A stretch of DNA of 8,266 bases from a virus. Lineage: Duplodnaviria > Heunggongvirae > Uroviricota > Caudoviricetes. The notes beneath the pieces were generated by a model. It worked only from the letters and a program-made list of their open reading frames with translations. It was not told where the DNA came from and made no database searches. Below, in pieces: positions 1 to 8,266 of this stretch; the stretch's first letter is position 1; the number at the start of each line of letters is the position of its first letter. The position numbers and the translations under genes were made by a program. Location: the IMG/VR virus record IMGVR_UViG_2619619132_000010; one strand, given 5' to 3'.

Positions 1-1284
1 TTACTTCTTCGCCTCTGCAACCACTTTACTACCCACGCCGCGGTTATTGTATTCCCACATGCGGTTGTAGTTAGTGTCATTCAGATTGCGCTGTATTTCG
101 TCGTTATCATCTACGCTGCCGGTATTACCCGCAAACGGACGATTAGAGATCACCGCATCGGCCCACGGTTTAGCCGTGTTAAAACCTTCGTTGATGGCGC
201 TATCACGGATCACCACCTGACCGTTGGTATTGGCATCAACATCCAGCGAGCGGCCCAGTTGCGCCACACCATCACCGAAAGCATTGAAACGGCTGTTTAC
301 GGCGAGGAAACCGTAGTAAATGTTGGACAGCGTAGCCGGTGCAAACACATACGCTTCTTGCTGAGTACGTGAGTTCACCACGCGGAATTCGGTGTTATCG
401 AACACCACTGCGCCGCGACCAGAAACGATATCCACATCCCCTTCAATGTAGCTGTTGGTCACCAGCGTACGCGGCTGACGATTCGTTTCCAGACGGTTCT
501 GCACACCGCTGTTGGTGACAAAGAAGGTGTTCTGACGACCGAGAATGTTAACGTTGTTAATCTGTACCTGGTCACCATCAGTACGCAGTGCCACCGCCGG
601 ATGGTTACCTGCATCTACGCTATCGCCCAGCGTGTTTTCGATGGTCAGATTTTGCAGTTGCAGGCCATTGTTTTGTGACCAGAAGACCGCAGAGCAGAGA
701 ACACCGATACTGTCGCTGCGTTTGCTCTGGCAGCTATCGTACATATACCACGCTGGTTTACCTGGCATATATTTGCCGCGCGGGTTGACGTCGTGACGCC
801 AGTCGGCAGGGCTCATGCCACCATCAAGGGAAAGCCCAATCTTCACATCAATCGGTTTTTCACCTGTACCGTACAGAGTAATTCCACCCGGAGCGGCAGG
901 GACATATACCGTTCCCTGATACTCACCAGGCATCACGGCAATATACTGGCGCTTGTTGGTACGCTTGATAATTGCCGCATCTACCGCCGCCTGAATCGTG
1001 GTATGCGTTACACCTTGAGTGCCCGCCGGGCCGACAACAAAGTCAGGTTGCGCAGGCAGGGTAATCGGGGAAGGATTCCACGCTGCAGCACCTGGTGTCA
1101 GGGATGCAAAATAGTGTTGAGCATCGAAATTCTGCGCTTCTTTTGCCGACAGAATCGGGCGAGAAGAGGTACCAGGCGCGGTTTGATCAGAAGGACGTTG
1201 ATCGGGCGGGGTTGAGCTACAGGCGGTCAGCGTCACGCCAAAAGCCAATGCCAGCGCCAGACGGGAAACTGAAAATGTGTTCAC
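1..1284 (-). CDS. ybhC: YbhC-like outer-membrane lipoprotein (pectinesterase/acyl-CoA thioesterase family), host gene flanking attB-lambda
   Basis: Complete 427-aa ORF with TAA stop at 1-3 and a GTG start at 1284-1282 preceded by GGAG (about 6 nt spacing). N-terminus MNTFSVSRLALALAFGVTLTAC has a lipoprotein signal with lipobox LTAC. Sequence recognised as E. coli YbhC, the gene adjacent to attB-lambda. Confidence 0.88.
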   Translation of the reverse strand: MNTFSVSRLALALAFGVTLTACSSTPPDQRPSDQTAPGTSSRPILSAKEAQNFDAQHYFASLTPGAAAWNPSPITLPAQPDFVVGPAGTQGVTHTTIQAAVDAAIIKRTNKRQYIAVMPGEYQGTVYVPAAPGGITLYGTGEKPIDVKIGLSLDGGMSPADWRHDVNPRGKYMPGKPAWYMYDSCQSKRSDSIGVLCSAVFWSQNNGLQLQNLTIENTLGDSVDAGNHPAVALRTDGDQVQINNVNILGRQNTFFVTNSGVQNRLETNRQPRTLVTNSYIEGDVDIVSGRGAVVFDNTEFRVVNSRTQQEAYVFAPATLSNIYYGFLAVNSRFNAFGDGVAQLGRSLDVDANTNGQVVIRDSAINEGFNTAKPWADAVISNRPFAGNTGSVDDNDEIQRNLNDTNYNRMWEYNNRGVGSKVVAEAKK

Positions 1285-1309
1285 AGGTTGCTCCGGGCTA
1301 TGAAATAGA

Positions 1310-1430
1310 AAAATGAATCCGTTGAAGCCTGCTTTTTTATACTAAGTTGGCATTATAAAAAAGCATTGCTTATCAATTTGTTGCAACGAACAGGTCACTA
1401 TCAGTCAAAATAAAATCATTATTTGATTTC
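1310..1430. other. attL: attL (B-O-P') prophage-host junction; 15-bp core GCTTTTTTATACTAA at 1331-1345
   Basis: Core at 1331-1345 with host-side arm GTTGAAGCCTGC and phage-side P' arm GTTGGCATTATAAAAAAGCATTGCTTATCAATTTGTTGCAACGAACAGGTCACTATCAGTCAAAATAAAATCATTATTTG. The P' arm carries an IHF-like site (TTATCAATTTGTTGCAA) and Int arm-type sites (AGGTCACTAT, CAGTCAAAAT, AAATCATTAT) at about 1391-1425. Confidence 0.9.
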
Positions 1431-2489
1431 AATTTTGTCCCACTCCCTGCCTCTGTCATCACGATACTGTGATGCCATGGTGTCCGACTTATGCCCGAGA
1501 AGATGTTGAGCAAACTTATCGCTTATCTGCTTCTCATAGAGTCTTGCAGACAAACTGCGCAACTCGTGAAAGGTAGGCGGATCCCCTTCGAAGGAAAGAC
1601 CTGATGCTTTTCGTGCGCGCATAAAATACCTTGATACTGTGCCGGATGAAAGCGGTTCGCGACGAGTAGATGCAATTATGGTTTCTCCGCCAAGAATCTC
1701 TTTGCATTTATCAAGTGTTTCCTTCATTGATATTCCGAGAGCATCAACATGCAATGCTGTTGGGATGGCAATTTTTACGCCTGTTTTGCTTTGCTCGACA
1801 TAAAGATATCCATCTACGATATCAGACCACTTCATTTCGCATAAATCACCAACTCGTTGCCCGGTAACAACAGCCAGTTCCATTGCAAGTCTGAGCCAAC
1901 ATGGTGATGATTCTGCTGCTTGATAAATTTTCAGGTATTCGTCAGCCGTAAGTCTTGATCTCCTTACCTCTGATTTTGCTGCGCGAGTGGCAGCGACAGG
2001 GTTTGTTGTTATATGGCCTTCAGCTATTGCCTCTCGGAATGCATCGCTCAGTGTTGATCTGATTAACTTGGCTGACGCCGCCTTGCCCTCGTCTATGTAT
2101 CCATTGAGCATTGCCGCAATTTCTTTTGTGGTGATGTCTTCAAGTGGAGCATCAGGCAGACCCCTCCTTATTGCTTTAATTTTGCTCATGTAATTTATGA
2201 GTGTCTTCTGCTTGATTCCTCTGCTGGCCAGGATTTTTTCGTAGCGATCAAGCCATGAATGTAACGTAACGGAATTATCACTGTTGATTCTCGCTGTCAG
2301 AGGCTTGTGTTTGTGTCCTGAAAATAACTCAATGTTGGCCTGTATAGCTTCAGTGATTGCGATTCGCCTGTCTCGGCCTAATCCAAACTCTTTACCCGTC
2401 CTTGGGTCCCTGTAGCAGTAATATCCATTGTTTCTTATATAAAGGTTAGGGGGTAAATCCCGGCGCTCATGACTTCGCCTTCTTCCCAT
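1419..2489 (-). CDS. int: Lambda-type tyrosine integrase Int (356 aa)
   Basis: 356-aa ORF MGRRRSHERRDLPPNLYIRNNGYYCYRDPRTGKEF... recognised as lambda Int. Its 3' end overlaps the P' arm of att and its 5' end overlaps the xis 3' end, as in lambda. Confidence 0.96.
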   Translation of the reverse strand: MGRRRSHERRDLPPNLYIRNNGYYCYRDPRTGKEFGLGRDRRIAITEAIQANIELFSGHKHKPLTARINSDNSVTLHSWLDRYEKILASRGIKQKTLINYMSKIKAIRRGLPDAPLEDITTKEIAAMLNGYIDEGKAASAKLIRSTLSDAFREAIAEGHITTNPVAATRAAKSEVRRSRLTADEYLKIYQAAESSPCWLRLAMELAVVTGQRVGDLCEMKWSDIVDGYLYVEQSKTGVKIAIPTALHVDALGISMKETLDKCKEILGGETIIASTRREPLSSGTVSRYFMRARKASGLSFEGDPPTFHELRSLSARLYEKQISDKFAQHLLGHKSDTMASQYRDDRGREWDKIEIK

Positions 2490-2685
2490 TTCTGATCCTC
2501 TTCAAAAGGCTACCTGTTACTGGTCGATTTAAGTCAACCTTTACCGCTGATTCGTGGAACAGATATTCTCTTCCATCCTTAACCGGAGGAGGGAATATCC
2601 TGCATTCGCGCACCCATCGACGAACTGTTTCAAGGCTTCTTGGGCGTCGCTGGCGAGCGTTCCACTCCTGAAGTGTCAAGTACAT
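2467..2685 (-). CDS. xis: Excisionase Xis (72 aa)
   Basis: 72-aa ORF MYLTLQEWNARQRRPRSLETVRRWVRECRIFPPPVKDGREYLFHESAVKVDLNRPVTGSLLKRIRNGKKAKS recognised as lambda Xis. Overlaps the int start by 23 nt. Confidence 0.95.
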   Translation of the reverse strand: MYLTLQEWNARQRRPRSLETVRRWVRECRIFPPPVKDGREYLFHESAVKVDLNRPVTGSLLKRIRNGKKAKS

Positions 2686-2697
2686 CGCAAAGTCTCC

Positions 2698-2711
2698 GCA
2701 ATTACACGCAA
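2698..2711 (-). promoter_or_regulatory. cII-box (TTGC-N6-TTGC) of the pI promoter for int
   Basis: Minus strand reads TTGCGTGTAATTGC just upstream of the xis ATG (2685), the arrangement known for lambda pI, where the cII-activated transcript starts inside xis. Confidence 0.6.
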
Positions 2712-2712
2712 G

Positions 2713-2732
2713 AAAAAACCGCCATCAGGCGG
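2713..2732 (-). terminator. Intrinsic terminator candidate (hairpin CCGCC-TGAT-GGCGG followed by TTTTTT on minus strand), possibly tL3-like
   Basis: On the minus strand a 5-bp GC stem with 4-nt loop is followed by a T6 run. The stop codon of the upstream 55-aa ORF lies in the loop. Sits between that ORF and the pI/xis region. Confidence 0.5.
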
Positions 2733-2892
2733 CTTGGTGTTCTTTCAGTTCTTCAATTCGAATATTGGTTACGTCTGCATGTGCTATCTGCGCCCACAGC
2801 ATCCAGTGGTTATAGCAGTCGCTGATGTTCTCGGCTTCGATAACTCTGTTGAATGGTTCTCCATTCCATTCACCTGTAACTCGGAAGTGCAT
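2725..2892 (-). CDS. Hypothetical 55-aa protein (matches position and size of the small ORF just left of xis in lambda)
   Basis: ATG at 2892 preceded by GGAG; translation MHFRVTGEWNGEPFNRVIEAENISDCYNHWMLWAQIAHADVTNIRIEELKEHQAA; TGA at 2727-2725. Not in the six-frame track (under 60 aa). Spacing to the xis start is 40 nt. Confidence 0.6.
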   Translation of the reverse strand: MHFRVTGEWNGEPFNRVIEAENISDCYNHWMLWAQIAHADVTNIRIEELKEHQAA

Positions 2893-2898
2893 TTATCA

Positions 2899-2930
2899 TC
2901 TCCATAAAACAAAACTCGCCGTAGCGAGTT
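2899..2930 (-). terminator. Intrinsic terminator candidate (7-bp stem AACTCGC / GCGAGTT, loop of 4, then TTTTGTTTTAT on minus strand)
   Basis: Perfect 7-bp inverted repeat at 2913-2919 and 2924-2930 with a 4-nt loop, followed on the minus strand by a U-rich tract (2899-2912). Lies in the 107-nt gap between the 86-aa ORF and the 55-aa ORF. Confidence 0.5.
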
Positions 2931-2999
2931 CAGATAAAAGAAATCCCCGCGAGTGCGAGGATTGTTATTCACCTTTGACGGCAAGTTGCAGGTTAGCCA

Positions 3000-3260
3000 T
3001 TACCGCACCTCCAGTCTCCATACCGCCTGACCAATCCGGCTGGCATAGGTATCTTTGGATACTGCTCCGTCTTTAGCCAGCTCCATAAGAATTTTGCGCA
3101 AATCTGCCGAACGCCATTCCTCATCAGGAAATTCCTTCTCCATTGCCAACCGCAGATTCCAGGTTGCTATCGTGAATGGATATTCCCCGCCGAGAGCTTT
3201 CTCTTGCAGGGCAGAACGGGAACGCATCACCTGCAAAACCTTCTCTTTTACATCCATCAT
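3000..3260 (-). CDS. Hypothetical 86-aa early accessory protein (Ea8.5 position)
   Basis: ORF MMDVKEKVLQVMRSRSALQEKALGGEYPFTIATWNLRL... with a strong SD AGGAGG 4 nt upstream of the ATG. The start overlaps the stop of the upstream 304-aa gene (ATGA). Confidence 0.6.
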   Translation of the reverse strand: MMDVKEKVLQVMRSRSALQEKALGGEYPFTIATWNLRLAMEKEFPDEEWRSADLRKILMELAKDGAVSKDTYASRIGQAVWRLEVR

Positions 3261-4171
3261 TTTGCCTCCTGCGGCGGTTCCGGTAGCGGCATCCAGTGAG
3301 TTACGTCATCCAAGATATTTCCTGATAAATATGTGAAAGCTCTATATTTTTTGTAATAAATTGGACTCATTACCCAGTTCCAATATGCTGCCACTATTTG
3401 ACCTTGACTAAATGCCAGTAACATTTTGGTGTCTTCCGGCATTCGCTCACTACAGCTTATCCAACCATCCGGAGTTACCGGAACTTGTGGAATGGCTGTC
3501 TGCTCTCGAACGTCATTAGGCGCTATAGGTTCTGCTGCCAACTGACTGGCATATTTGTTAATGGTAACGATAAGCTCTTGCTCAGCCTCATCCAGACAAT
3601 CACCGATACCTCGCCTGTCACCGTCAAAATCATCGAAATCGGCACGAATCCTGGCAACCTTCAGGATTGCGGACAACACCTCACTAGGAATTGCCGGATA
3701 GTTGGTTGACGTTTCCGCGATTTCCCGAAAATTATTGGTTGACGAATTCTTGTTTTCCCGAAAGTTTCCGGACTGAAGCATGGCGGCGCGGCAGGCGTTC
3801 CATATTTCGGCAGCAATATCGCGCTCGCTATCGGTTAATTTGTACGTTGAAACATAGCCAGAGAGCATTTCTACGTTTTCCGGAGTTGCTTCTTCAGGCA
3901 CTACCGGTGCTGGAGGGGCGGCGTAAATGCCCTCTATCACTAAATGTTTGCGCTCAAAATCATCTGGCTCTCGATGATATACGTAACTCCAATCACCAAG
4001 GTTATCATTGCGCCTGCAACGGAAACCTATCGGCTCTGCTTCCAGCGATGCCAGAGCAATTCGTGCCAGTTCTTCCGCTTCTTCTGCTGGCAGTACAACG
4101 TTGCTACCAGGTCCGTATGTTTCGCGCCACTGCCTGATTGTCAGCAGTCGCTCTTTGGTAATAGTGGTCAT
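3257..4171 (-). CDS. Phage accessory protein, 304 aa, with DUF551-like C-terminal domain and an internal 11-aa tandem repeat
   Basis: ATG at 4171 with AAGGA 7 nt upstream. The C-terminal region DGWISCSERMPEDT...WMPLPEPP resembles the DUF551 domain common in lambdoid Ea-region proteins. Internal repeat NFRENKNSSTN / NFREIAETSTN. Confidence 0.72.
   Translation of the reverse strand: MTTITKERLLTIRQWRETYGPGSNVVLPAEEAEELARIALASLEAEPIGFRCRRNDNLGDWSYVYHREPDDFERKHLVIEGIYAAPPAPVVPEEATPENVEMLSGYVSTYKLTDSERDIAAEIWNACRAAMLQSGNFRENKNSSTNNFREIAETSTNYPAIPSEVLSAILKVARIRADFDDFDGDRRGIGDCLDEAEQELIVTINKYASQLAAEPIAPNDVREQTAIPQVPVTPDGWISCSERMPEDTKMLLAFSQGQIVAAYWNWVMSPIYYKKYRAFTYLSGNILDDVTHWMPLPEPPQEAK
3702..3767. 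repeat. Imperfect 33-bp tandem duplication (2 units, about 25/33 identical) inside the 304-aa CDS
   Basis: TTGGTTGACG occurs at 3702-3711 and again at 3735-3744, and TTTCCCGAAA at 3721-3730 and 3754-3763, i.e. the same 33-bp spacing. In frame (11 codons per unit). Confidence 0.6.
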
Positions 4172-4181
4172 GTGTTAGTCC

Positions 4182-4445
4182 TTATCCTGCTGTACTTTCA
4201 ACTGATGAGGGGAATAAAATCTTTTCATCAAATCCGGCATTCATATCATGAACAGCAACACACCAATCCATTGACGAACGATTATCAAGAGCCTCCATGA
4301 TTTCATCCATGCGGCGCAGGTCATACAGGTAAATGCTTTTATCGCCAATGGTGTAAAAACCAATTTTTTTCGGTGATGGGCAGCGATCAAGAACGTCCTG
4401 TAATTCGTTCAACCATGCCCGTTCTTTTTTTGTTAAAGTTGCCAT
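4182..4445 (-). CDS. Hypothetical 87-aa protein
   Basis: ATG at 4445 (MATLTKKERAWLNELQDVLDRCP...) preceded by AGGAGAG. The six-frame track extends this ORF upstream to 4487, but the SD-supported ATG is at 4445, 1 nt after the Ea22-like stop. Confidence 0.6.
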   Translation of the reverse strand: MATLTKKERAWLNELQDVLDRCPSPKKIGFYTIGDKSIYLYDLRRMDEIMEALDNRSSMDWCVAVHDMNAGFDEKILFPSSVESTAG

Positions 4446-4446
4446 C

Positions 4447-4929
4447 TCACTCTCCTTTGATGCGAATGCCAGCGGCGCGGGAATCATTCCATCGCTTTAC
4501 TTCTTCACGAATTACGTCAATGCATTCTTTCGAATCCATTAGGTAATCTTCATCAAAAAGACGTTCCTGTTCGTTTTCTATCGCAACAATGATTGCTTCA
4601 ACTAACTTTTGTGCCTGAGAATCACTTTCTAACTCTGCTATGCGCTTACTTCCATCCGAGATAACGCCCTCGTAATACTCACGCTGCTCGTTGAGTTTTG
4701 ATTTTGTCTCCTCAAGCTCAACTCTCAGCTTCCCAACAGTAAGCGCAATATCCTCGTTCTCTTGGTCGCGGCGTTTGATGTATTGCTGGTTTCTTTCCCG
4801 TTCATCCAGCAGTGCCAGCACAACCTGAGGTGTGACTTTCATACGAAATGCCAGCAATTTTTGAGGCGTTGCTACTGTTTCAATTGCTACTGCTGCCTCA
4901 CGCAGTACCTGATAGTCAATCTTGCTCAC
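4447..4929 (-). CDS. Ea22-like early accessory protein (about 160 aa from the GTG start)
   Basis: The segment [37 protein letters not shown]...[14 protein letters not shown]...AGIRIKGE is recalled as lambda Ea22-like. Most likely start is GTG at 4929 with AGGAGG 6 nt upstream (MSKIDYQ...). The track's alternative start is 4950 (also GTG). Confidence 0.68.
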
Positions 4930-5093
4930 TGGTTGCCTCCTTTGCGCCACATCGCATTCAGATATTTGTTTTTATTCACTGAAGGAAAAGAATTTCTCTT
5001 AAGCAATTCCTCTCTCGATGGCATTGGCTTTACGCGTTGGCGAATAATCATTTCTGCCGGAAGAATGCCGGGATTGTATGCAAGACCTCTCAT
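4926..5093 (-). CDS. Hypothetical 55-aa protein
   Basis: ATG at 5093 overlaps the stop of the upstream 96-aa gene (ATGA), and its own TGA overlaps the GTG start of the Ea22-like gene (GTGA). Translation [55 protein letters not shown]. Not in the track. Confidence 0.45.
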
Positions 5094-5380
5094 GATTTAC
5101 TCTCCACGAACTGGTCAATAGCCATGCTAAGTGACACACCTAAAGTCTCGATATGCTGCTGAATATCCTGTAGCGTCTGCGCCTGAGATAACAGGATTTC
5201 ACGGTTGCATAACTCTTTAACTAGATGCTCAAACTTGCTGTAATAACCGATACGGCTTAGTGTTTCTTTCCCTGCATTATCACCTTCTTTGATAATTCCT
5301 CTTTCACTAAGAATCAGGTCGTGTTTGGTTACGGTAATAACGTATTTGCCGAGGTCGATGTTTAGCTTCATTGTTTTCAT
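5090..5380 (-). CDS. Hypothetical 96-aa protein (possible Abc-like accessory protein by position)
   Basis: ATG at 5380 ([17 protein letters not shown]...) with GAGGA 7 nt upstream. The track extends the ORF upstream to 5533, but that extension overlaps the preceding gene and lacks an SD. Confidence 0.6.
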
Positions 5381-5390
5381 TGTTAATTCC

Positions 5391-5687
5391 TCAGTCATTA
5401 CTGATAGCGCCATAACGAGAGCGATAATTACGCAGGCGCGGGTCGATATATTCAGGGAAGTGGGTATATGTGGCTTTGCGGAATGGTCGGATTGATGTCT
5501 GGTAAATTCGCTCGCGTTCTTCTTTCTCTGCAAGCCATATACAGTGGCGAAATTCCTTTTCCTCTTTCGTTTCCTGCGGTAGCGACATTATCCGATCGTA
5601 GTTTTTTCTGAATTTATCCAGCACCTCCGATACGGAATTGCCGGAACAGCGGCGCGCGTCATCCGCACCATACAGAGGCGCTGGCAT
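5391..5687 (-). CDS. Hypothetical 98-aa protein (possible Abc-like accessory protein by position)
   Basis: ATG at 5687 with AAGGA 7 nt upstream; translation MPAPLYGADDARRCSGNSVSEVLDKFRKNYDRIMSLPQETKEEKEF.... Lies 23 nt downstream of the ssb-like stop. Confidence 0.6.
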   Translation of the reverse strand: MPAPLYGADDARRCSGNSVSEVLDKFRKNYDRIMSLPQETKEEKEFRHCIWLAEKEERERIYQTSIRPFRKATYTHFPEYIDPRLRNYRSRYGAISND

Positions 5688-5710
5688 AATGGAATCCTTA
5701 TTTTGCTAAT

Positions 5711-6094
5711 CTAGAAGGGAATTGAATCGTCGTATTCAGGATGATTTTGATGATTGCTACTTTGTTGCTGTTGGCTGTTTCCTGAAGTTGCAAATCCAAT
5801 CTTTGCATTCAGTAATTCAAGAGTGATTGATTGACCATTTTGCCCCTGATAAACATCAACCATGATGTTTTCTCCGGTAATTTCTACAATGCCACCTTCA
5901 ACAAGAACACTACGGTAGTAATCCGCTTGCGCTCCCGGCTTGGCAAATACAACGGCGCTGTAGTTTGTCCATTCTTTCTTTTTTGTCTGGCGATCGTAAT
6001 ACTGAACGCCAGCACGGATGTTGAATCCGATATTTTCCCCGGCCTGAAACTCTCTTGCGGGCTTGTTTAGTCTTACAGTAATCGAATGTGCCAT
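5711..6094 (-). CDS. ssb: Short phage single-stranded DNA-binding protein (SSB-like, 127 aa)
   Basis: C-terminal acidic tail ...EYDDSIPF matches the SSB-family DDDIPF-type tail, preceded by a Q/S/N-rich linker and an N-terminal domain of OB-fold size. Start ATG overlaps the erf stop (TAATG). Confidence 0.72.
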   Translation of the reverse strand: MAHSITVRLNKPAREFQAGENIGFNIRAGVQYYDRQTKKKEWTNYSAVVFAKPGAQADYYRSVLVEGGIVEITGENIMVDVYQGQNGQSITLELLNAKIGFATSGNSQQQQSSNHQNHPEYDDSIPF

Positions 6095-6699
6095 TAAGCA
6101 GCAGCTCCTTCTAATTCGTCTCGTCTGATGTTGTAAACGTCCTGCGCTTTGTGCTGCTCAGGTGTGCCTTCGAGCATCTTCCACGCTTTGGCGAACGCCT
6201 GTTTAAGCTCTTCTACGGTGTTTTTCTGCATTGCTGCGTCAGTGAATGCTTTTAGAACCTGTTCAGGTGTAGGTGATGGTTTTGATTGCTTTGCTGCTGC
6301 GTTCTGCTGATGTTTATGCTCGTCTGTATCTGCATCTTTCGCATCATCAATGCCGAACAAACCATTGAGGCAATACTTGCGTGCATAAGAGCTTGTAGCT
6401 CCCGTAACTTGTGCAGAATCCATTCCTTTCTTGCTTTCTTCCTCTCGTGCAAGAGCGGTTGCCGTATGGCTGTTTTCGCCATCGGTAATAGTTGCCGTGG
6501 CTTTCACGTAATACCGATCACCAATCAACACAACTTCATCGCTGATTGATAAAAACAGACCATTCAGTAACGGCTTAACGCCTTCAAGAATATCTTCGCA
6601 GCTTCTGTATTTATATTTACCGAATGAGTTGTACTGATTCTTTGGCGCGTTCAGATTCTCCTGAATAGCTGCCAGTCTTGCGTAAAATTCTTTGCTCAT
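6094..6699 (-). CDS. erf: Erf-family single-strand annealing recombinase (P22 Erf-like, 201 aa)
   Basis: MSKEFYARLAAIQENLNAPKNQYNSFGKYKYRSCEDILEGVKPLLNGLFLSISDEVVLIGDRYYVKATATITDGENSH... recognised as close to phage P22 Erf. Start taken as ATG at 6699; the track's 6729 start is a TTG extension. Confidence 0.9.
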   Translation of the reverse strand: MSKEFYARLAAIQENLNAPKNQYNSFGKYKYRSCEDILEGVKPLLNGLFLSISDEVVLIGDRYYVKATATITDGENSHTATALAREEESKKGMDSAQVTGATSSYARKYCLNGLFGIDDAKDADTDEHKHQQNAAAKQSKPSPTPEQVLKAFTDAAMQKNTVEELKQAFAKAWKMLEGTPEQHKAQDVYNIRRDELEGAAA

Positions 6700-6709
6700 A
6701 TGATTGTTC

Positions 6710-6880
6710 TCAGAATGGACACGGCCCAAGGAAATAACGCTGATTTAATACTTCGACTCGGGACAAATTAAGGCATACCCGCATTCCTTCACGATCTCCA
6801 TTCTGGCGATACATTAACGCCTGCTGCGTGTACATGCGTCTCTGTAACTTGCTCTCCTTCACTGTGGTTGCAAGTGACAT
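6710..6880 (-). CDS. Hypothetical 56-aa ORF just upstream of erf (arf-position candidate); overlaps the next ORF in another frame
   Basis: ATG at 6880 preceded by GGAG with 6-nt spacing; translation MSLATTVKESKLQRRMYTQQALMYRQNGDREGMRVCLNLSRVEVLNQRYFLGPCPF; TGA at 6712-6710, 10 nt before the erf ATG. Not in the track. Confidence 0.4.
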   Translation of the reverse strand: MSLATTVKESKLQRRMYTQQALMYRQNGDREGMRVCLNLSRVEVLNQRYFLGPCPF

Positions 6881-6959
6881 GAATATCTCCTTCGTTACCG
6901 ATTAATTCTTTCATCTGACGAATGAATTCTTCGTCTGACCAGTTATCTGTAAAACTCAT
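6789..6959 (-). CDS. Hypothetical 56-aa acidic protein, translationally coupled to the kil-like gene
   Basis: ATG at 6959 overlaps the kil-like stop (ATGA); translation MSFTDNWSDEEFIRQMKELIGNEGDIHVTCNHSEGEQVTETHVHAAGVNVSPEWRS. The track shows it with a GTG-extended start at 6974. Confidence 0.45.
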   Translation of the reverse strand: MSFTDNWSDEEFIRQMKELIGNEGDIHVTCNHSEGEQVTETHVHAAGVNVSPEWRS

Positions 6960-7108
6960 TTCCTGCGATACCACGGAAGGTTGATAGCTGATTTCATCGC
7001 TTTATTTGCTTCAAGCCACATTTTTGAATCACCAATAAATCTGGCTATTACTGCTTTGTTCTGTGCAGCACGAAGCATCTGGTGATTGATGGCTATTTCA
7101 TTGCGCAT
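6956..7108 (-). CDS. kil: Kil-like small protein (50 aa), candidate host cell-division (FtsZ) inhibitor
   Basis: Translation MRNEIAINHQMLRAAQNKAVIARFIGDSKMWLEANKAMKSAINLPWYRRK. The ARFIGDSKMW segment resembles recalled lambda Kil. GAGG 7 nt upstream of the ATG; the start lies inside the 3' end of the cIII-like gene, as for lambda cIII/kil. Confidence 0.55.
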   Translation of the reverse strand: MRNEIAINHQMLRAAQNKAVIARFIGDSKMWLEANKAMKSAINLPWYRRK

Positions 7109-7224
7109 AATAAGACCTCAACTCTTTTCCATCCGTCACGTAATTTACGGGTGATTCGTTCAAGTAAAGATTCATTTAATTGGAAGGCACCCATGCGAGC
7201 GCCTCCCGCGATTGCGTAAATCAT
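7093..7224 (-). CDS. cIII: CIII-like protein (43 aa), candidate FtsH-inhibiting regulator
   Basis: Translation MIYAIAGGARMGAFQLNESLLERITRKLRDGWKRVEVLLCAMK. The core ESLLERITRKLRDGWKR matches the recalled lambda CIII central helix. AAGGA 7 nt upstream of the ATG. Not in the track. Confidence 0.7.
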   Translation of the reverse strand: MIYAIAGGARMGAFQLNESLLERITRKLRDGWKRVEVLLCAMK

Positions 7225-7248
7225 GGGTGGTTCCTTATGTTGGTTTTA

Positions 7249-8142
7249 TTAGTAGGTTATTTTTGTTGCGAATACTTCGCCTTTTACGATGGCTGTTATG
7301 ATATTTTTAGCAACATCTTCTGATGCACCAACCTTGATAAGGTCAGCAAGTATTTTGTTATTTACTTCTTTCCGGTGAGCTTTATCCTTTGCTCTACGCT
7401 CTTCTTCGTCCTTGATTCTTTTTTCTTCTGCTATTCTGGCTTGCTCTTTTGCTTCAGCTTCGCGCCGGATTCGTTCAGCCTCCTCCTGTGCTTTTCGGCG
7501 TTCTGCTTCAATTGCCGCCTGCTTTTCTCTTTCAGCTCGTTCTGCTGCCTCTTTTGCTTCGCGCTGTGCTCGTTGCTCGGCTTCAATGCGTTCACGCTCT
7601 GCACGTTCCGCTGCGGCCTTAGCTTCTGCTTCTCGCCTTGCTGCTGCTTCAATTTCGGCTTTTGCCTTTGCTTCGGCTTCTGCTCTGGCTTTCTCTTCAG
7701 CTTCTCTTTTTAAGCGTTCTTCATGCTCTCGCTTTTCCTGCTCCGCTTTGAGTCTTGCCTCTTCTCTTTTGCGGTCAAATTCGCGATCCATCAAAATCGC
7801 TATTTCATGGTCAGACTCAATTTGCTTTGCGAGAGCTTCAGCTGCTGCCTTAGCTTCTTCTTCGGCTTTAATCCGTGCCTGTTCCTCCTCATAATCAGTA
7901 AGAGGCTGGCGTGCCTTGGCTTTCAGTTCATCAAGGCGATCGCGCACTGTCTTGCGGTTGGCATCAATTAGCTTTGGAATTTCCTTCAGTTCAGCAACAA
8001 GGTCTTTGCCAAGACCATCGAGATATGTTTTCGTCTGCGCAACTTTATACGCCAGAGAAGCGATCTGAACCGCCCCGGGTTTCCTGGAGAGTGTTTTATC
8101 TGTGAACTCAGGCTGCCAGATCATCGTTTCCGATGGAAGCAT
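7249..8142 (-). CDS. Large charged low-complexity protein (E/A/K/R-rich predicted long helix), function unknown; 5' end uncertain
   Basis: Long minus-strand ORF with stop at 7251-7249. First in-frame ATGs are at 8142 and 8124, neither with a convincing SD. The central 500 nt or so encodes EAEAKAKAE / ERAERER-type repeats. Its 5' region overlaps the transposase C-terminus in another frame. Confidence 0.55.
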   Translation of the reverse strand: MLPSETMIWQPEFTDKTLSRKPGAVQIASLAYKVAQTKTYLDGLGKDLVAELKEIPKLIDANRKTVRDRLDELKAKARQPLTDYEEEQARIKAEEEAKAAAEALAKQIESDHEIAILMDREFDRKREEARLKAEQEKREHEERLKREAEEKARAEAEAKAKAEIEAAARREAEAKAAAERAERERIEAEQRAQREAKEAAERAEREKQAAIEAERRKAQEEAERIRREAEAKEQARIAEEKRIKDEEERRAKDKAHRKEVNNKILADLIKVGASEDVAKNIITAIVKGEVFATKITY

Positions 8143-8266
8143 AATAAGCTTTTTCTGCTTCTGCCGGAGGAGTATGGCCCAGCCTTTCCAGCAATCGTCG
8201 ATTGTTATACCAGTCCACCCACGTGAGTGTGGCCAGTTCCACTTCTGCACGGTTTTTCCAGCTCTT
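8108..8266 (-). mobile_element. C-terminal end of a DDE (rve-type) transposase, IS3-family-like; partial, runs off the window
   Basis: Minus-strand frame reads ...KSWKNRAEVELATLTWVDWYNNRRLLERLGHTPPAEAEKAYYASIGNDDLAA then TGA at 8110-8108. The W..WYN.RR...LG..P.E motif is typical of the C-terminal part of integrase-core transposases. Confidence 0.55.

Follow-up and report, generated by a model that had tools for sequence, protein, structure and literature searches.

Does the prophage DNA at att-lambda studied here join the integration genes of phage lambda to the recombination genes of the Salmonella phage P22, as a first-pass annotation made from the sequence alone had proposed, or is it of another origin? 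The stretch analysed (IMG/VR record IMGVR_UViG_2619619132_000010; 8266 nt, referred to as the window) is the 3'-terminal part of draft contig JHDL01000020.1 of assembly GCA_000601335.1, to which it is 100% identical, and every gene in it lies on the minus strand according to the listing of open reading frames (ORFs) and the comparison with annotated records. In our reading, which we hold with a probability of about 0.93, the window comprises the bacterial gene ybhC and, of a lambdoid prophage integrated at att-lambda, the attachment site attL and the leftward early operon (pL) over its promoter-distal 6.7 kb, with a gene set of the HK97 kind (Table 1). The proposed mosaic of lambda-type integration and Erf-type recombination functions was confirmed by alignment and gene content, and nothing was found that contradicts the identification as the left arm of an HK97-type lambdoid prophage. 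The biochemical roles of the module genes considered below would be those of their homologues in lambda, P22 and HK97.

The integration segment is nearly identical to that of lambda. In a local blastn comparison, positions 1331-2968 aligned with positions 27724-29361 of lambda (NC_001416) at 98.718% identity (1638 columns, 21 mismatches, 0 gaps), and this segment spans the att core, the P' arm, int, xis, the cII/pI box, orf55 and three terminator-like hairpins. The mismatches are found in int (3), xis (7), orf55 (9) and the intergenic hairpins (2), and there are 0 in positions 1331-1747, which include the core and the P' arm. The earlier label "lambda-identical" for int and xis consequently holds as near-identity (98.7% of the DNA, i.e., to within 1.3%) and not as identity, and the proteins are in fact closer to those of HK97, to which Int and Xis are 100% identical. 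Compared with lambda Int over all 356 residues, Int carries two residue changes, H164P and I248V, and the Pfam families Arm-DNA-bind_1 and Phage_integrase are assigned to the identical int gene in the related loci L011 and L013-L015. As in lambda, int and xis overlap (2467-2489). The lambda alignment starts where the core does, at position 27724 of lambda, the site of the annotated core; because this first base comes after ybhC-side DNA, the site represents attL. Both end coordinates given for the mosaic in the first pass were exact, as the core starts at 1331 and the ATG of erf lies at 6699. Four parts of a lambda-type integration module are present, i.e., a core at the junction of bacterial and phage DNA, Int, Xis together with the predicted pI box, and the P' arm. 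The three repeats of the P' arm presumably represent P'1-P'3.

By analogy, this integration module would work as in lambda. Int and the host IHF would recombine attP with attB, and Xis would steer excision. Activation of pI by cII would lead to Int without Xis while lysogeny is established, and N-antiterminated transcription from pL would supply both proteins.

Apart from the integration genes, the window carries the recombination genes abc2, a gene of the HK97 gp40 type and erf, which are contiguous and follow the order of the HK97/HK75 module, with amino acid (aa) identities to HK97 of 94%, 93% and 100%, respectively. This set is the published HK97/HK75 functional type (Abc2 + SSB-1b + Erf; SSB, single-strand DNA-binding protein) and stands in place of Exo, Bet and Gam of lambda. 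In a 2025 survey of 325 lambdoid phages, the type consisting of an anti-RecBCD function, an SSB and a single-strand annealing protein (SAP), with no nuclease, has HK75 as its prototype and comprises 27 of the 325 panel phages (PMC12315714, Table 1). No difference from the HK75 type was found, as Abc2, SSB-1b and an Erf-type SAP are contiguous here and no nuclease accompanies them; the small ORFs beside erf are not counted as members of the module in that scheme (PMC12315714). A tblastn search of the window for lambda Exo, Bet and Gam returned nothing, and the full interval from cIII to int, in which the Red genes are located in lambda, lies inside the window, so that the counter-case named beforehand, Red genes at another place in the operon, does not apply. 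Likewise, a search for a nuclease within the module gave neither an Exo match (tblastn) nor a Pfam nuclease domain, and the three genes abut, leaving no room for a further ORF. The initial view of Erf and a short SSB rather than Exo/Bet/Gam was thus upheld by PF04404, PHROG 44 and the tblastn result for Red, and abc2 (5391-5687), which had not been named, belongs to the same set. P22 Abc1 and Arf found no match either when searched over the window by tblastn (Abc1 at E<=0.01); the place of abc1, the gap between abc2 and erf, is taken by the SSB-like gene at 5711-6094, and the place of arf by two 56-aa ORFs.

The PHROG assignment, the predicted fold and the tail motif together support an SSB-like nature of the 127-aa protein. 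It matches PHROG 44 ("single strand DNA binding protein") with E=2e-27, and the acidic, SSB-style tip DDSIPF is kept in its homologues (DD.IPF). A single-sequence AlphaFold prediction was unusable (predicted local distance difference test, pLDDT, 42) and was repeated with an alignment of 22 sequences; the resulting AF2 model has an OB fold (pLDDT 83.3), and among the structures of the Protein Data Bank (PDB), Foldseek placed SSBs of bacteria or mitochondria, or PriB, in all of the top 50 ranks (E from 3e-5, probability 1.00, TM 0.4-0.55). The survey mentioned above takes the same view of HK97 gp40, for which it uses the name SSB-1b (PMC12315714).

On the model of the homologues, Erf would anneal complementary single strands, and the SSB-like protein would coat single-stranded DNA and thereby help Erf. 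Abc2 would bind RecC and modify or redirect RecBCD, so that the host enzyme would provide nuclease and helicase, i.e., the part taken by Exo in lambda.

Comparison with known phages places this combination. HK97 (NC_002167) shares 100% aa identity in Int, Xis, Erf and Kil and 93%, 94% and 92% in gp40, Abc2 and gp38, respectively, as well as the order att-int-xis-...-DUF2737-abc2-gp40-erf-small ORF(s)-kil-cIII, and its record annotates a core identical to that of the lambda att site. At the DNA level, identity to HK97 amounts to 98.9% over 1331-2733 and 96.5% over 5377-7110. However, HK97 lacks orf55 and continues from the xis terminator into gp37, and positions 2734-4890 of the window, which encode orf55, the ASCH remnant, the 86-aa, EaA/DUF551, 87-aa and Ea22-like genes, are unmatched there; the window furthermore has an extra DUF5405 gene (5094-5377), the cIII/TolA-like region differs past 7110, and gp42 is fused in HK97, where two additional single bases join both 56-aa ORFs into one 83-aa gene product. 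HK106 (NC_019768) resembles the window in its lambda-type att, int, xis and orf55 (98.6% over 1331-2946) and in abc2-gp40-erf-two small ORFs-kil (96.4% over 5377-7110), but features other accessory genes, is devoid of the DUF5405 gene and carries, between the two hairpins, a gene annotated as queuine tRNA-ribosyltransferase, which is flanked by a 16-nt duplication of 2931-2946. HF4s is 97.8% identical over 5377-8066. In contrast, lambda has ea8.5, ea22, orf61/63/60a and exo-bet-gam right of position 2968, and the sequence common to both is there limited to parts of ea22 (80% over 4637-4930; 100% over 4444-4474) and a 48-nt piece of cIII (7126-7173, 100% identical).

With P22, the window shares the protein families of Erf (75% aa identity) and Abc2 (92%), their location in the pL operon, with the accessory genes on one side and kil/c3 on the other, and the lack of a phage exonuclease. 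The DNA is 90% identical in abc2 (5377-5690) and 79.5% in the N-terminal part of erf (6223-6699), and the N-terminal part of Erf is far better conserved than the last ~60 residues, which have diverged. The SSB-like gene replaces abc1, two unrelated small ORFs replace arf, and the integration module is unrelated. Judged by DNA identity (96-98%), the true relatives of the recombination genes are HK97, HK106 and HF4s. What stood of the designation "P22-type" in the first-pass annotation are the Erf and Abc2 families; with 79-90% DNA identity to P22, abc1 and arf missing and 96-98% identity to the HK97 type, the region is P22-type only in kind.

A recent direct hybrid of lambda and P22, in which the lambda left end would be joined to the P22 erf region, could be suspected from the P22 families of Erf and Abc2 and from 64 nt at 2709-2772 that are 98.4% identical to P22. 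This island is, however, also present in lambda, and the P22 record L06296 already annotates the stretch as identical to lambda 29106-29165; moreover, the P22 genes abc1, arf, kil, int and xis are absent, erf and abc2 reach only 79.5% and 90% DNA identity, and the recombination region is 96-98% identical to that of the Escherichia coli phages HK97, HK106 and HF4s, with 100% aa identity to HK97 Erf. Contradicted by the DNA identities and the absent P22 genes, such a hybrid was rejected as highly improbable.

Another conceivable origin is an assembly artefact, i.e., a chimeric draft contig built from two prophages. In favour of this, the window comes from the very end (8.3 kb) of a draft contig terminating in an insertion sequence (IS) element, and coverage of >=80% at a single place was reached by none of the phage records or complete E. 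coli genomes. Two independent assemblies nevertheless match, as L014 is 100% identical to window 1-6556 and L015 99.96% to 1-5423; L011 is 100% identical to 1-4706. Furthermore, lambda-type int and erf are found on one molecule in the complete genomes of CUVET21-PYO5 and O26 strains and in the isolated phages HK97, HK106 and 720R6. The artefact was therefore rejected as well, and its probability is negligible.

The HK97-type prophage arm is consequently no new mosaic, as the combination of lambda att/int/xis with the Erf/Abc2/gp40 set is the already known HK97 arrangement. The genome of HK97 was reportedly described by Juhala and colleagues in 2000, and the same combination is said to have been in the literature since then. 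Many complete E. coli genomes carry ybhC together with a lambda-type int and an ERF module, and the combination of lambda att/int/xis with an Erf-type set is common among E. coli prophages at att-lambda. The mosaic arose through ordinary horizontal exchange among lambdoid phages and not by a recent cross of lambda and P22.

Where the modules were joined could be read from the alignments to lambda, P22 and other relatives. A first boundary is located at 2705-2735, in the terminator between xis and orf55. Homology to P22, HF4s, 611R6, L010, L012, CUVET, 6817 and 720R6 starts or stops within 2705-2716 (in CUVET, 6817 and 720R6 for the right-hand copies), and HK97 departs from the window sequence at 2717-2733. 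L010 (7213-11459) contains the block of the window from 2713 rightwards at 99.6% identity over 4247 nt, and L012 (6106-11467) the block from 2705 rightwards at 97.2% over 5363 nt. Left of this accessory-plus-recombination block, both loci carry a 392-aa integrase of another family beside sbcB. Because the same downstream block is joined at this point to a different integrase, the terminator at 2705-2735, and not position 2968, is the junction for swapping whole int-xis modules. The near-identity of the block in L010 (99.6%) suggests that the integration module was swapped there and, if so, recently. The second boundary (2966-2971) divides orf55 and the hairpins from a variable gene slot. Here lambda (ea8.5 upstream), HK106 and the phages with an ASCH gene diverge right after the stop codon of the variable gene. 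Lambda similarity ends at 2968/2969, 5 nt upstream (in the sense of transcription) of the hairpin 2942-2963. A switch away from lambda had been expected near 2895-3000, which is correct for the end of lambda similarity; the exchange junction of the integration module lies apart from it, at 2705-2735. Further to the right, homology to relatives starts or stops at start or stop codons (3257, 4177-4182, 4442-4447, 4945, 5094, 5377, 5690, 6699, 6959 and 7110).

Two intragenic islands were also observed. One, at 3435-3482 at the start of the DUF551 domain, is shared with P22 eaA, HK106, HF4s, 720R6 and CUVET (92-100%), and the other, at 4712-4821 in the Ea22-like core, with P22 eaD, HK106, 6817 and CUVET (87-94%), with only 75% identity in HF4s. 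Both are recurrent breakpoints within otherwise divergent genes. Overall, breakpoints cluster at gene boundaries, terminator hairpins and short conserved islands, and the coincidence with short conserved sequences or gene ends, for which the alignment to lambda and P22 had been suggested as a check, was found in a descriptive sense.

Such clustering raises the possibility that the terminator segment 2705-2776 and similar islands are dedicated linkers selected for promoting exchange (the Susskind-Botstein idea), rather than ordinary conserved sequence at which junctions survived. At least eight loci begin or end their homology within 2705-2735, and the left partners differ, including lambda xis, P22 eaC, the excisionases of HF4s and 611R6, the integrase module of L010 and L012 and an extra gene in CUVET, 6817 and 720R6. 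The ~70-nt segment 2705-2776 (terminator and 3' end of orf55) is 95-100% identical in lambda, P22, HK022, 434 and Shiga toxin (Stx) phages, with unrelated flanks. A 201-nt query (2700-2900; terminator and orf55) matched 168 phage records, 80 of them over >=80% of its length, with left ends clustering at 2705-2713 and right ends at 2772-2776 or beyond. However, a terminator together with the 3' end of orf55 explains the conservation of the segment without a linker role, and many junctions coincide with a start or stop codon and share no more than 0-6 nt (e.g., 5094, 5377 and 2966-2971), as expected of illegitimate recombination followed by selection. The data do not separate homology-promoted recombination from illegitimate joins that survived selection, and the conserved sequences have functions of their own as terminators and coding ends. 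We hence regard a general linker role of these islands as unlikely, and it is just as doubtful that segment 2705-2776 in particular would be more than a terminator and have been selected as a linker where recombinases of the Erf or Red type exchange complete integration modules.

Several points weigh against the overall picture of an HK97-type prophage arm with exchanged modules. Searches of Pfam and NCBIfam with the 127-aa protein gave no match and sequence searches of the PDB gave marginal SSB matches (E=0.058 with the single sequence, 0.4 with a profile); because of this, the assignment as an SSB relies on PHROG, the predicted fold and the tail motif, the similarity amounting to TM 0.4-0.55 and 10-18% identity. 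The 128 alignment ends from 12 loci lie at a median of 17 nt from a gene boundary, compared with 100 nt for random positions, a statistic that is descriptive only, since BLAST alignment ends are non-independent and the 12 loci are related. Finally, an IS3-family element interrupts the operon at 8066/8067, taking 151 nt off the 5' end of the TolA-like gene, and the end of the window is the end of the contig; as pL, N, the immunity region and attR are outside the window, this copy may be a defective remnant. Because the element separates these genes from pL, their expression from pL and the inducibility of the prophage are uncertain. An exact-match scan of genome contigs for the junction between prophage and IS element found no match.

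This last point leads to a reading of the element as a decaying, non-inducible remnant whose modules no longer cooperate, which concerns the status of the copy and not its identity. The TolA-like gene has lost its first ~50 codons to the IS3-family element, which also cuts int through cIII off from pL, the ASCH gene has suffered a 249-bp deletion, and the relative L011 lacks the erf region and abuts bacterial genes. On the other hand, none of the 17 phage ORFs from int to cIII is disrupted, the viable phage HK97 has exactly the same Int, Xis, Erf and Kil proteins, and an IS insertion alone need not end N-antiterminated transcription, while pI could still drive int. We consider decay a serious possibility for this copy, at slightly below even odds. 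L011 itself (ENA assembly), identical to window 1-4706, diverges at its position 9466 inside the Ea22-like gene, at the recurrent breakpoint 4703-4712, and, with the erf region missing, passes into molybdopterin oxidoreductase genes of bacterial origin; this relative seems to have been rearranged or to have decayed.

With respect to its remaining genes, the HK97-type arm differs once more from lambda: the accessory genes between both modules are unrelated to those of lambda, as had been anticipated. The mini-ORF MANLQLAVKGE* looks like a deletion product of an ASCH gene, of which 34 nt from the beginning and a few nt from the end remain; relative to L005, L007 and L008, 249 bp are missing in frame between them, with a 6-bp overlap (2966-2971) at the junction. 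Homology of the HK97 type is broken exactly at 5094-5377, i.e., by the DUF5405 gene between the DUF2737 gene and abc2; this gene is present in L005, L007 and L009 and not in HK97, HK106, HF4s or P22, and it resembles a single-gene insertion at a gene boundary. The Ea22-like protein is 73% identical to the N-terminal 103 residues of lambda Ea22. Next to erf, the two 56-aa ORFs use different frames and have 92 nt in common, and this two-ORF form occurs in HK106 and CUVET as well. The TolA-like protein is long, highly charged and rich in Glu, Lys and Ala; records name it "TolA" or "Gam antitoxin-like", and no Pfam or PADLOC match was obtained. PADLOC likewise identified no defence system among eight proteins (seven accessory proteins and the SSB-like protein). 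The folding energies of all three hairpins are far below those of shuffled controls. A search of the window with Rfam (gathering thresholds) and a tRNA scan gave no matches, and a promoter scan of the window, which yielded fewer sigma-70-like sites than shuffled sequence, was not used. The terminus of the IS element may be that of IS629/IS1203.

Table 1. Coordinates of the features in the window and the evidence for each (RBS, ribosome-binding site; z, z-score against shuffled sequence).
Feature	Position	Strand	Evidence and remarks
ybhC, bacterial flank on the gal side of att-lambda	1-1284	-	427-aa ORF; so annotated in E. coli genomes matching 98-99%; pectinesterase Pfam family
attL core GCTTTTTTATACTAA, 15 bp, start of phage DNA	1331-1345	+	Read directly; preceded immediately by bacterial DNA of the ybhC side
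P' arm with three tandem arm-type-like repeats (about 1392-1421)	1346-1430	+	100% identical to lambda
int, lambda-type tyrosine integrase, 356 aa	1419-2489	-	100% aa identity to HK97 Int, 99.4% to lambda Int
xis, 72 aa	2467-2685	-	100% aa identity to HK97 Xis, 98.6% to lambda Xis (1 residue differs)
cII-type box TTGCGTGTAATTGC (TTGC-N6-TTGC), -35 region of predicted pI, at xis start	2698-2711	-	No mismatch to lambda; function as predicted from lambda
Terminator-like hairpin overlapping the orf55 stop	2716-2735	-	Fold -13 kcal/mol, z=-2.7
orf55 (= lambdap35)	2725-2892	-	94.5% aa identity to lambda orf55 (3 residues differ); phrog_676 E=1.4e-39; no function assigned
Two tandem terminator-like hairpins	2912-2931, 2942-2963	-	Folds -11.9 and -13.1 kcal/mol; z=-4.1 and -5.5; both within the lambda-homologous segment
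ASCH-domain gene remnant (putative), 11 codons, MANLQLAVKGE*	2965-3000	-	Comparison with L005, L007, L008; ASCH annotated in L005, L008
86-aa accessory gene	3000-3260	-	phrog_2814 E=8e-51; no Pfam, NCBIfam or PADLOC match; no function assigned
EaA-like protein, 304 aa, C-terminal DUF551	3257-4171	-	PF04448 E=7e-22 on residues 236-301; ~35% aa identity to both ends of P22 EaA
87-aa accessory gene	4182-4445	-	phrog_1714 E=1e-50; 87-aa call also in L010-L015; no function assigned
Ead/Ea22-like gene, 160 aa from GTG at 4929	4447-4929	-	PF13935 E=1.8e-27; good RBS before 4929
DUF2737 gene (= HK97 gp38, P22 orf56)	4926-5093	-	PF10930 E=1e-31; 92% aa identity to HK97 gp38
DUF5405 gene, 96 aa	5090-5380	-	PF17399 E=1.5e-5; phrog_154 E=4e-32 (PHROG label "replication initiation protein")
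abc2, anti-RecBCD	5391-5687	-	PF11043 E=4e-61; 92% aa identity to P22 Abc2, 94% to HK97
SSB-like OB-fold protein, 127 aa, HK97 gp40 type ("SSB-1b"), DDSIPF C-terminal tip	5711-6094	-	93% aa identity to HK97 gp40
erf, single-strand annealing protein, 201 aa	6097-6699	-	PF04404 E=2.4e-44; 100% aa identity to HK97 Erf; ATG at 6699
Two overlapping 56-aa ORFs at the P22 arf position	6710-6880, 6789-6959	-	phrog_1723 E=4e-35, phrog_2123 E=4e-40
kil	6956-7108	-	100% aa identity to HK97 Kil; Lambda_Kil Pfam family in L012, L013
cIII	7093-7224	-	69% aa identity to lambda CIII over 35 aa; 62% to P22 C3
TolA-like coiled-coil gene, without its first ~50 codons	7249-8066	-	phrog_21365 E=5.5e-118; intact 322-aa homologues in L005, L012 reach 151 nt further
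End of IS3-family insertion sequence, terminal TGAACCGCCCCGGG	8067-8266	-	96.6% identical to an "IS3 family transposase" element of E. coli 6817; transposase C-terminus ORF 8108-8242

Beyond annotation, the window is of little importance, yet it represents a clean textbook case of lambdoid mosaicism. Its by-products are the exact breakpoints, one accessory-plus-recombination block that a single terminator joins to two different integrases, and a predicted fold that independently supports the view that proteins of the HK97 gp40 type would be SSB-like.

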